Assembly (NCBI GenBank): GCA_964596685.1
Contig: CAZQVA010000002.1
Span: 12,947 to 76,946, forward strand
DNA: 64,000 nucleotides
Reading direction: 5' to 3'
DNA from: an uncultured bacterium
Lineage (GTDB): Bacteria > Chlamydiota > Chlamydiia > Chlamydiales > VFKH01
Positions 57,527 to 59,513 of the stretch are shown here, piece by piece. Made by a program: the position numbers and the translations under genes. Positions within the stretch are counted from its first letter, which is position 1, and the number at the start of each line of letters is the position of its first letter. A model generated the notes under the pieces. The model saw only the letters and a program-made list of their open reading frames with translations, had not been told where the DNA came from and ran no database searches.

Positions 57527-58471
57527 ATGAATCGGAAAAGGATTTTGGTTACTGGTGGTGCGGGTTTTTTAGGCTCACACCTCTGTGAAAGATTACTGAC
57601 TTTAGGAAATGAAGTATTATGTTTAGATAACTTTTTTACTGGCTCAAAGGATAATATCCAGCACTTAATTCTGAATCCATTTTTTGAATTAATCAGACAT
57701 AACATTTGCGAACCGATTAAATTGGAAGTAGATGAGATTTATAATCTTGCATGCCCTGCCTCGCCTTTTCATTATCAACGATTTCCGGTGGAAACAGTTC
57801 GCACTAATGTTTTAGGTGCCGCAAATGTACTGGAGCTAGCGCGACATTTTAAAATTAAGATATTTCAAGCCTCAACTAGTGAAGTGTATGGTGATCCACT
57901 ACAGCATCCTCAGCAAGAAAGTTATTGGGGGAACGTGAATCCCATTGGAATACGTTCCTGTTATGATGAAGGAAAACGCTGTGCAGAAACTTTATTTTTT
58001 GATTATAGCCGTCAATTTCAGATCCCCATCAAAGTGGGGCGTATTTTCAATACATATGGCCCACACATGAACGTGAATGACGGTCGAGTTGTTTCCAATT
58101 TTATTATTCAAGCGTTAAAAGGAGAGAATATTACTATCTATGGAAATGGCCGGCAAACGCGTTCTTTTTGTTATGTTGATGACCTGATTGATGGGATCAT
58201 CCGCTTAATGGCAACTGATTCTGAGGTGGTCGGCCCCGTAAATATAGGTAATCCTACTGAGTTTTCAATGCTTGAGTTGGCAGAAGAAGTGATTTCATTA
58301 ACGCGTTCTTCTTCAAAAATTGTTTTTCAATCGTTGCCAGCTGACGATCCTAAACAACGTCAGCCAGATATTTCCTTAGCACAGACTTTATTTGGCTGGC
58401 AGCCAAAAGTACCTTTGAAGGAAGGATTGTTAAAAACGATTGAGTATTTCACTAAACGCTTGGACATATAA
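57527..58471 (+). CDS. uxs: UDP-glucuronate decarboxylase (UDP-xylose synthase)
   Basis: The protein is collinear with UXS/ArnA-C enzymes. Motifs are [42 protein letters not shown] (YxxxK), RIFNTYGP and [10 protein letters not shown]. The start was set at ATG 57527, with a GGAG upstream. Confidence 0.9.
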
Positions 58472-58481
58472 AGACTTTGAT

Positions 58482-59513
58482 ATGAGTTATTTTACTGAAT
58501 TAAAACGTAAATGGTATAAATATCAAGATTTATCCCATTACTTTAAAAATTTACCCAAACCACCCAAGTGCACGTTACCAGCATGGATGGAGGATCAGAT
58601 AACTCAAGACATAACTACAGCATCGACTGTGCGTTATGGGGTGAAGTATCCATTCGCTTTCGTGATTTGTTGCATTAAAAACGGGAAGATTCGATTTCAT
58701 CACTCTTATAGCTTGAATAATGGATATCGAATTTTAGTGATCAAGCGGTTTTTTTTATACCTAGTAACACATTATACGCTTCCAAATTGCGAATTTGCAA
58801 TTCAGGTAGAAGGAGACTGTCTTGAGTTCACTCCAGCAGAACTTGGTGTGCCTGCATTAACATTTGCTAAGCAAAAGAGTTCCTGTGGTCCAATTTTAAT
58901 GCCTGATATCGAGATGTTAAAAGGGTATACTAAAATCGATAGAGAAGTTGAGATAGCATCTGCTAAATATCCATGGGAAAGCAAGCAGAACATGGGGATA
59001 TGGAGAGGGGCAACTACTGGAGGAGGGTATACGCCAACTACTGCACATAGGATCCCTAGAATGCAGTTAGTAAATGAATCATTACAAAACGGGACCCTTT
59101 TTGATGCGCGGTTTACGCAACGCACACAGTGTGCCGACGATTTCATGCTAGATGAGAAATATTTTGCAGATCCTATGTGTTTAGAGGATCATTTTCGATA
59201 TAAATACCTTATTGATGTTGATGGGAATAGTTGCACATATTCTCGGTTGTATTGGATTTTGCGATCCAATTCAGTATTGTTGAAGCATCAATCTGATAAT
59301 ATTCAATGGTATTATGGTGGGTTGCAGGATAAAGAAAATGCCTATTATTTCACATTGGGCAATGGGAGTACGTTAAGCAAGTTAATTCTTTGGTTGAGAG
59401 ATCATGATAAAGAGGCGCACAAAGTAGCAGAGAATGGACGTCATTTTTGTATTGAATATTTAAACATGACGTTTTGTGTGAATTATGTTCTTGAGATTAT
59501 CACTAGGCTATAA
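58482..59513 (+). CDS. GT90-family glycosyltransferase (CAP10 / POGLUT-like domain)
   Basis: The CAP10 core is readable and collinear with eukaryotic POGLUT/Cap10 proteins: WRGATTG, FRYKYLIDVDGNSCTYSRLYWILRSNSVLLKHQS, LWLRDHDKEAHKVAENGRHF. The start was set at ATG 58482. Confidence 0.85.
   Translation: MSYFTELKRKWYKYQDLSHYFKNLPKPPKCTLPAWMEDQITQDITTASTVRYGVKYPFAFVICCIKNGKIRFHHSYSLNNGYRILVIKRFFLYLVTHYTLPNCEFAIQVEGDCLEFTPAELGVPALTFAKQKSSCGPILMPDIEMLKGYTKIDREVEIASAKYPWESKQNMGIWRGATTGGGYTPTTAHRIPRMQLVNESLQNGTLFDARFTQRTQCADDFMLDEKYFADPMCLEDHFRYKYLIDVDGNSCTYSRLYWILRSNSVLLKHQSDNIQWYYGGLQDKENAYYFTLGNGSTLSKLILWLRDHDKEAHKVAENGRHFCIEYLNMTFCVNYVLEIITRL

Follow-up and report, generated by a model that had tools for sequence, protein, structure and literature searches.

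A candidate xylose cassette for surface glycans in an uncultured chlamydia: a UDP-xylose synthase gene beside GT90 and GT4-like glycosyltransferase genes

The DNA analysed here is a stretch of 64,000 nucleotides from an uncultured member of the Chlamydiales, referred to as the window, and the element in question is a row of three genes on its forward strand. The first gene (57527..58471) encodes a UDP-glucuronate decarboxylase/UDP-xylose synthase (UXS), the second (58482..59513) a glycosyltransferase of family GT90 (CAP10/POGLUT type), and the third (59514..60620) a GT4-like glycosyltransferase. We put a probability of roughly 0.5 on the reading that the three genes are one translationally coupled operon, a cassette for adding xylose to a cell-surface glycan, and that the GT90 enzyme is the user of UDP-xylose. 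An earlier note on this DNA had described the first two genes as a xylosyltransferase module. The third gene was absent from it and also encodes a glycosyltransferase.

The UXS protein is a short-chain dehydrogenase/reductase (SDR) of the extended type, with 314 residues. A further in-frame ATG is present at 57509; the GGAG at 57518-57521 favours the ATG at 57527, and the 314-residue form is also the one in public gene calls. In the PDB search, human UXS1 (hUXS1) was matched over the full length with E=3.5e-116 and 55.1% identity in 312 columns. The Pfam families Epimerase (E=1.6e-50) and GDP_Man_Dehyd both span the full length. The N-terminal NAD-binding motif GxxGxxG is present at residues 8-17 (GGAGFLGSH). 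The SDR triad T117/Y146/K150 aligns with Thr118/Tyr147/Lys151 of hUXS1, the roles of which have been described (PMC3438964), and the CYDEGKR segment is identical to that of hUXS1. In addition, S118, E119, and R278 align with Ser119, Glu120, and Arg277 of hUXS1, three residues that mark the UXS group and are missing from the related UDP-glucuronate (UDP-GlcA) 4-epimerases (PMC3438964). Assignment as a UDP-apiose/xylose synthase (UAS) or as an ArnA-type enzyme was ruled out by this full UXS signature together with NCBIfam ArnA and U4kpxs scores far under the cutoffs. More than 8000 database proteins are homologous at E<1e-60. The best of them are 70–75% identical, and many are annotated as UDP-glucuronate decarboxylase. 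Judged from the 55% identity with hUXS1 and the 70–75% identity with annotated decarboxylases, the enzyme would turn cytoplasmic UDP-GlcA into UDP-xylose, and formation of UDP-apiose is not expected from a UXS-type synthase.

The few best UXS matches that name an organism are all bacterial (Chlamydiales, Chlamydiota, Thermodesulfovibrionales, and Arenicellales). UXS activity in bacteria was established around 2011, with a tally of over 1000 homologues in bacteria at that time (PMC3220709). The window enzyme had been regarded as specially eukaryote-like in its layout. However, it is 70–75% identical to bacterial UXS proteins and 55% identical to hUXS1. Since the best matches are bacterial at this level, the likeness to animal and plant UXS is explained by general conservation of the family and is no sign of a eukaryotic origin.

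The GT90 protein, of 343 residues, is a candidate inverting beta-xylosyltransferase with a GT-B fold. The peptide that had been quoted as its CAP10 core, KYLIDVDGNSCTYSRLYWILRSNSVLLKHQS...WLRDHDKEAHKVAENG, was found in the translation. The Pfam family PF05686 was matched with E=5.3e-24 and 85.3 bits against a cutoff of 24; this match covers residues 73-355 of the 357-residue open reading frame that begins at an alternative TTG at 58440. The sequence search of the PDB returned POGLUT2 (E=3.3e-16) and POGLUT1 (1.8e-7). The AlphaFold model, made with 35 homologues as input, reached a pLDDT of 92.4. With this model, Foldseek placed POGLUT2 (9w47) first at E=3.9e-19, and 5l0t, 5l0r, and 5f84 were found at about 1e-16 to 5e-15. 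The template modelling (TM) score against POGLUT2, POGLUT1, and Rumi was 0.70, and generic GT-B enzymes were far behind. D112 aligns with the catalytic base of POGLUT2, D238, and by homology with D133 of POGLUT1. R193 and R255 align with the diphosphate-binding arginines R316/R376 of POGLUT2 and R218/R279 of POGLUT1. These three residues are invariant across the 35 homologues. The position of POGLUT2 R310 is occupied by Ala in the window protein and by Ser in POGLUT1. From these residues the enzyme looks catalytically competent and inverting like its family. No N-terminal hydrophobic segment or signal peptide was found in the protein, so it is expected to be cytoplasmic. The position of POGLUT2 F338, which contacts the epidermal growth factor (EGF) repeat, is Thr. 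A POGLUT-type O-glucosyltransferase of EGF-repeat proteins was rejected on the missing signal peptide, the change of F338 to Thr, and the lipopolysaccharide (LPS) genes in the neighbourhood.

The third protein has 368 residues. No Pfam or NCBIfam match was obtained for it, and a profile of its family (48 homologues) gave no significant match against the PDB sequences, so that its name comes from the fold search. Its AlphaFold model is a two-Rossmann GT-B structure with a pLDDT of 93.6. The top Foldseek matches were PimA (E=3.5e-10, TM score 0.68), WaaG, PglA, BshA, and MshA, with TM scores of 0.6–0.68. Invariant in the family are G202...K208-G209 and E288 within SGIFVEAI, which we take to resemble the donor-binding motifs of GT4 enzymes. 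It has 90 homologues. Organism names are given for three of these, all Simkania or Chlamydiales, and PF00534/PF13692 of the Glycos_transf_1 type are found in the weakest matches.

The three genes are tightly packed. The UXS gene runs through its stop codon to 58471, and with the GT90 ATG at 58482 a spacer of 10 nt is left. The start codon of the GT4-like gene is on the base right after the GT90 stop (0 nt). Co-translation is therefore implied. The synthase, the GT90/CAP10 identity of its neighbour, and the start of the latter 11 nt on had all been given in the earlier note, and they were borne out by the coordinates, the hUXS1 match with every UXS signature residue, the PF05686 match, the POGLUT folds with the catalytic Asp and Arg pair, and the measured spacer.

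In order to see how far the linkage extends, GT90 loci were compared from species-representative genomes (34 loci) and from metagenomes (22 loci), together with the contigs of the five closest homologues; single loci are cited below by L numbers. The 34 genome loci are nearly all from Chlamydiota metagenome-assembled genomes (MAGs), a few being labelled Verrucomicrobia or Proteobacteria, and the best GT90 match in the scan of species-representative genomes is 40% identical. A UXS orthologue near GT90 was called by tblastn with the window proteins at an identity of at least 50%. Outside the window, it appeared at two loci only, L043 and L038. In L043, a distant chlamydial contig, UXS, GT90, and the GT4-like gene, which are 75%, 40%, and 30% identical respectively, follow in the same order as overlapping genes, and this triad stands alone between yjbH and yacP/greA. 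Because the triad recurs there with a GT90 only 40% identical, the adjacency of UXS and GT90 is not accidental. The GreA beside it is of the long type found in chlamydiae, and the assignment of the window to the Chlamydiota is based on this GreA and on the named relatives of the three cassette proteins. In L038, an 8.7-kb contig, the closest GT90 relative (46%) adjoins Wzy_C and is about 4 kb from a divergent pair of UDP-glucose dehydrogenase (UGD) and UXS genes. Thus GT90, Wzy_C, UGD, and UXS are found within 5 kb, an SDR gene directly follows UXS, and no GT4-like homologue was found on the contig. Within this glycan cluster, the Wzy_C gene and a methyltransferase gene have between them one for a small protein with a zf-MYND domain, which is typical of eukaryotes (L038:2477-2920, +).

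The window GT90 and its five closest database relatives form one clade with 98% bootstrap by neighbour joining (NJ). The L004 protein joins the clade by BLAST, being 68% identical to P0004 against 34–37% for typical relatives outside the clade. All seven members are without a signal peptide, and the clade sits in LPS-type clusters. UXS linkage was found for 3 of the 7 members, the window included, and for 0 of about 48 loci outside. When the window was excluded, the counts were 2/6 versus 0/48 with L004 in the clade (Fisher p=0.0105), and 2/5 versus 0/50 without it (Fisher p=0.007). The pairing of UXS and GT90 is therefore specific and recurrent, but not every member of the clade shows it, some flanks being short. 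Elsewhere in chlamydiae, UXS genes (70% identical) occupy a different syntenic position, near Wza, a penicillin-binding protein (PBP), and rpsB-tsf, with no GT90. This arrangement was seen in Chlamydiota MAGs at L072:4463-10201 and L073:222-3023, where the UXS orthologue (70%) keeps a conserved place beside rpsB and the gene of a large PBP. The L072 gene is preceded as well by those of a Wza-type polysaccharide exporter and an 839-residue uncharacterised protein, and further uncharacterised proteins flank it; this context is possibly the ancestral one. The GT4-like family directly adjoins GT90 in the window, L004, L036, L042, and L043. In L069 and L070 it adjoins a quite divergent GT90 in inverted order, and in L071 it is found in a heptose cluster without GT90. 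A GT9 gene lies beside the GT90/GT4-like pair in L042.

Cassettes of this kind already have a bacterial precedent, which the earlier note had not considered. The Xanthomonas pisi operon XpUAS-XpApiT (GT90)-XpXylT (GT2) is flanked by insertion sequences (IS) and was biochemically tested (Smith and Bar-Peled 2018, PMC6193724). It has three genes in the same order as the window: an SDR that decarboxylates UDP-GlcA, a soluble GT90 a few nucleotides on, and a second glycosyltransferase. Both are beside IS elements, and for each a horizontal acquisition is suspected and a decoration of surface glycans proposed. On the other hand, the X. pisi synthase is a UDP-apiose/xylose synthase, whereas that of the window is strictly of the UXS type with 55% identity to hUXS1. 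The second glycosyltransferase is a GT2 enzyme with the GT-A fold in X. pisi and a GT4-like enzyme with the GT-B fold here. The host here is a chlamydia, and the likeness of the window cassette to the operon is one of architecture. Because its synthase is of the UXS type with the full UXS signature, the window cassette is a variant and not a member of the apiose operon.

Among eukaryotic relatives, animal POGLUT1/Rumi and POGLUT2/3 share with the window GT90 the GT-B fold, the catalytic Asp, and two diphosphate-binding Arg residues, and an inverting mechanism would be shared as well. However, the identity is 24–28%, and the window protein is without a signal peptide, an endoplasmic reticulum retention signal, and a filamin domain. 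It also has a 10-residue insertion after WRG, and the EGF-binding residue is not conserved. Cxt1 and CAP10 of Cryptococcus neoformans are GT90 beta-1,2-xylosyltransferases that transfer xylose from UDP-xylose to capsule polysaccharide, and this organism needs UXS. As the GT90 family is described, with the Cryptococcus xylosyltransferases included (PMC6193724), the resemblance lies in a GT90 transfer of xylose onto polysaccharide and not onto protein; unlike the window enzyme, they are eukaryotic Golgi type II membrane proteins. The characterised UXS proteins of Sinorhizobium meliloti (Uxs1) and Bacteroides fragilis (PMC3220709) come from polysaccharide loci. Like the window enzyme, they are cytoplasmic, of about 310 residues, and highly similar to eukaryotic UXS. 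In contrast, no pairing with GT90 is reported for them, and the window UXS is without a nearby UGD.

A possible order of events is proposed as follows. UXS would make UDP-alpha-D-xylose from cytoplasmic UDP-GlcA, a step that is established as far as sequence can do so. At the inner face of the inner membrane, two soluble cytoplasmic GT-B enzymes would then act one after the other on an acceptor linked to lipid. This may be the LPS core or an undecaprenyl-linked repeat unit, as the context of GmhA/HldE, Wzy_C, GT2, and the L042 GT9 suggests. The inverting GT90, with its POGLUT1-like Asp base and Arg pair, would take UDP-xylose and form a beta-xyloside, and the GT4-like enzyme, which has a retaining-type fold, would add the neighbouring sugar.

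That GT90 uses the product of UXS had been proposed from the adjacency alone. This part of the earlier proposal is upheld by a UXS linkage that recurs and is restricted to one clade, and it is weakened by the abutting second glycosyltransferase, which is equally well placed; it therefore stands as one of two live options. GT90 is considered the likelier user because of the known pentose donors of GT90 enzymes, the content of L038, and the clade-restricted UXS linkage. POGLUT1 can use UDP-xylose (PMC5543122). Among the UXS-linked loci, GT90 is present in 3/3 and the GT4-like gene in 2/3, the exception being L038 with its 8.7-kb contig. Several observations weigh on the other side. No UXS was found in the available flanks, some of them short, of 4 of the 7 clade members. 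The UXS-linked clade shares its donor-sugar loop, DGNSCTYSR, with many chlamydial GT90s that have no nearby UXS, and at this loop no signature of a particular donor sets the clade apart. The clade does have substitutions of its own, H286N, P289F/Y, D297S/T, and A145M, at sites conserved in other chlamydial GT90s, and most of these four sites are also conserved in the human POGLUT fragments. In the X. pisi operon, the only tested precedent, the donor was UDP-apiose for GT90 and UDP-xylose for the other glycosyltransferase (PMC6193724). The GT4-like enzyme is an equally adjacent candidate, and the donor choice of GT90 would have to be read from genomic linkage. Finally, no UGD was found by tblastn with the L038 UGD query in the 64-kb window, nor in the 10 kb downstream. 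The supply of UDP-GlcA to the cassette is thus an objection to the proposal, although a UGD gene farther away or uptake of UDP-GlcA from the host may be conceivable. Tentatively, the cassette and its surface-glycan role could be the same with the donors exchanged, so that the GT4-like enzyme uses UDP-xylose to form an alpha-xyloside and GT90 takes a hexose donor such as UDP-glucose. The GT4-like gene is coupled to the operon as tightly as GT90 and recurs in the L043 triad, the X. pisi precedent and the shared donor loop of UXS-unlinked paralogues speak in the same direction, and POGLUT2 and POGLUT3 are strict glucosyltransferases. Nevertheless, L038 has GT90, UXS, and UGD with no GT4-like homologue on its contig, GT4-like homologues occur with GT90 or the heptose cluster but without UXS in L004, L036, L042, L069, and L071, and several characterised GT90 enzymes take pentose donors. 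We know of no characterised GT4 xylosyltransferase that could be cited. It is rather unlikely that the island is a mosaic in which UDP-xylose is used by another glycosyltransferase, for instance the downstream GT2, or is converted to a product such as UDP-L-arabinose, and that the GT90/GT4-like pair is unrelated to xylose. This would fit the absence of UXS from the available flanks of about 48 of 54 GT90 loci and of the four clade members above, the compositionally mosaic and IS-scarred island, the several SDR epimerase-like genes and GT2 downstream, and the SDR gene directly after UXS in L038. However, the L043 triad is set by itself among housekeeping genes, and neither a further transferase nor an epimerase lies close to it. 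Spacers of 10 nt and 0 nt imply co-translation, and the SDR-SDR-GmhA block downstream is kept without UXS in L040 and L071, which points to another pathway.

The remaining explanation is a module derived from a eukaryote, possibly an amoeba, whose POGLUT/CAP10-like enzyme xylosylates proteins, possibly those of the host. It is regarded as highly improbable. The family GT90 was originally defined from eukaryotes, animal POGLUTs are the nearest solved structures, and a eukaryote-like deubiquitinase encoded elsewhere in the window would suit a host-associated life. Against this, the UXS is closer to bacterial proteins than to the human one, and the window GT90 falls within bacterial sequences, nearly all of them chlamydial. 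Its named relatives, 27–46% identical, come almost all from Chlamydiota genomes or MAGs, a few bearing Verrucomicrobia or Proteobacteria labels, and the identity to the human fragments is 27.8% for POGLUT2 and 24.3% for POGLUT1. These two human POGLUT fragments were the only outgroup of the NJ bootstrap tree. The missing signal peptide, which places the enzyme in the cytoplasm, the non-conservation of the POGLUT2 Phe338, and the LPS-gene context argue in the same way. The transfer between domains that had been put forward in the earlier note thus gives way to nearest named relatives that are bacterial for UXS and mostly Chlamydiota for GT90, amid LPS-type neighbours. A recent co-transfer of the UXS-GT90 pair from a eukaryote or amoeba is not supported by the sequences, which point to a bacterial, mostly chlamydial, ancestry of the cassette genes.

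The preferred reading, a xylose cassette for a surface glycan, has to be seen in its genomic surroundings. The guanine + cytosine (GC) content is 0.345–0.388 in the methyltransferase, UXS, GT90, and GT4-like genes, and the mean of the 35 other window genes is 0.438 +/- 0.021 with a minimum of 0.396. The gene with the lowest GC of this island (0.345) encodes a class I S-adenosylmethionine-dependent methyltransferase (56417..57298, +; Pfam Methyltransf_23/11). Its membership in the cassette is uncertain: it is missing from the L043 triad, and methyltransferases flank the GT90 of the clade in L040 and L045. The three cassette genes lie at the left end of this low-GC island. Its left edge is marked by a broken transposase from a degraded IS of the DDE_Tnp_4 family (55383..56110, +), which is in two pieces, HTH_Tnp_4 (55383-55751) and a DDE_Tnp_4 fragment (55847-56110). 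The GC content falls there from 0.44 to 0.35–0.39. The island was probably acquired horizontally, to judge from its low GC and the broken IS, and all three cassette proteins point to other chlamydiae as its probable source. The contigs of three independent read sets, SRR14271335, SRR14271336, and ERR7015365, all stop at about 57426-57432, that is, 95–101 nt before the UXS start. This shared end in the intergenic region between the methyltransferase and UXS suggests a strain-variable junction or a repeat present elsewhere in the genome; a second copy of a repeat upstream of UXS was not found within the window. A scan for promoters and terminators over 55–64 kb gave no enrichment over shuffled sequences.

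Downstream of the cassette is a heptose-type sugar cluster (60772..63356, +; Pfam and NCBIfam) with two extended SDRs and a GmhA-like isomerase, which runs past the end of the window. Beyond the window (L001/L068), it goes on with HldE, E1 alpha and beta, an epimerase, a methyltransferase, an alcohol dehydrogenase (ADH), and GT2. The SDR-SDR-GmhA block is also found in L040 and L071, there without UXS or GT90. Because it is conserved without UXS at these loci, it is considered a separate module and pathway. The downstream SDR pair was accordingly rejected as a processor of UDP-xylose, since it travels with GmhA/HldE in UXS-less loci. The complete chlamydial cluster, SDR-SDR-GmhA-HldE-E1alpha-E1beta-epimerase-methyltransferase-Zn-ADH-GT2, spans 5353-12179 of L001/L068, where it continues from window position 62784 onward, and it is seen in L071 and L042 as well. 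The thiamine-dependent E1 pair in it, which is pyruvate-dehydrogenase/transketolase-like, suggests the synthesis of a branched or chain-extended higher sugar. About 11 kb upstream of the island, the window encodes a Wzy_C membrane protein of the O-antigen ligase/polymerase type (45087..46355, +; PF04932, E=8e-25) and a GT2 (46931-47716, -). Housekeeping genes separate these two from the island, and the pair points to a decorated LPS in this chlamydia. In the earlier note, a place of both genes in ordinary bacterial LPS clusters had been named as something that would speak against its reading. The neighbours found here, GmhA, HldE, Wzy_C, GT2, and, in the loci of relatives, GT9, are largely those of such a cluster.

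The rest of the window is housekeeping, including RecBCD-type genes, the Suf system, MnmG, RNase E/G, and Lnt. Two other genes may be mentioned. A protein of 374 residues (43238-44362, +) is a eukaryote-type ubiquitin C-terminal hydrolase (UCH; PF00443, E=4e-19). From its sequence it is likely a host-directed deubiquitinase effector, fitting an intracellular, host-associated lifestyle. A homologue of type II secretion system (T2SS) protein F (PF00482) is encoded at 21394-22572 (+), possibly in a T2SS or type IV pilus-like locus, and it may bear on the export of proteins with signal peptides.

The window GT90 belongs to a large and diverse family. At 50%-identity clustering, its size is 3853 clusters at E<=1e-3, 1222 at E<=1e-10, and 182 at E<=1e-30. 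Chlamydial GT90s are often present in several copies per genome. Two paralogues are adjacent in L006 (8863-10945), within about 1 kb in L063 (10001-12281), and about 7 kb apart in L057 (1891-2820 and 10001-10711). Paralogues that share contigs at these three loci indicate that GT90 was duplicated repeatedly within Chlamydiota. Most full-length chlamydial GT90s outside the window clade (P0007-P0065) start with a hydrophobic N-terminus that resembles a signal peptide or a transmembrane segment. The genes of such signal-peptide GT90s, for example L006:8773-9876, L019, L010, and L014, lie among ffh, prfA/prmC, trmD, rpsP, and rhomboid genes and not in sugar clusters. Such paralogues might be exported enzymes, POGLUT-like glycosyltransferases that work in the periplasm, the inclusion lumen, or the host. 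No literature on GT90/PF05686 in chlamydiae, the signal-peptide paralogues included, was found in our search, and nothing useful was found on O-antigen in environmental chlamydiae. A wider picture, which we offer as speculative and doubtful as a whole, is a large chlamydial GT90 radiation in which the cytoplasmic clade, together with UXS and the GT4-like enzyme, would be a portable beta-xylose cassette for LPS or another surface glycan, perhaps run on UDP-GlcA of the host, while the signal-peptide paralogues would be exported and GT90 would have been exchanged with eukaryotes in ancient times.

The identification of the genes is firm, and the proposed mechanism is plausible. The cassette itself is an ordinary-looking feature of a polysaccharide locus, and the signal-peptide-rich chlamydial GT90 family may be the more interesting lead. 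To our knowledge, the X. pisi apiosyltransferase is the sole biochemically assayed bacterial GT90. The window cassette therefore offers a second bacterial GT90 that is readily testable, and it is small, with three genes, all soluble products, and high-confidence models. The LPS of Chlamydiaceae is of a rough, Kdo-only type, and the surface glycans of environmental chlamydiae are, as far as we know, poorly characterised. If the proposal is true, the xylose-adding cassette would show that the LPS of environmental chlamydiae is far more elaborate than that of Chlamydiaceae.

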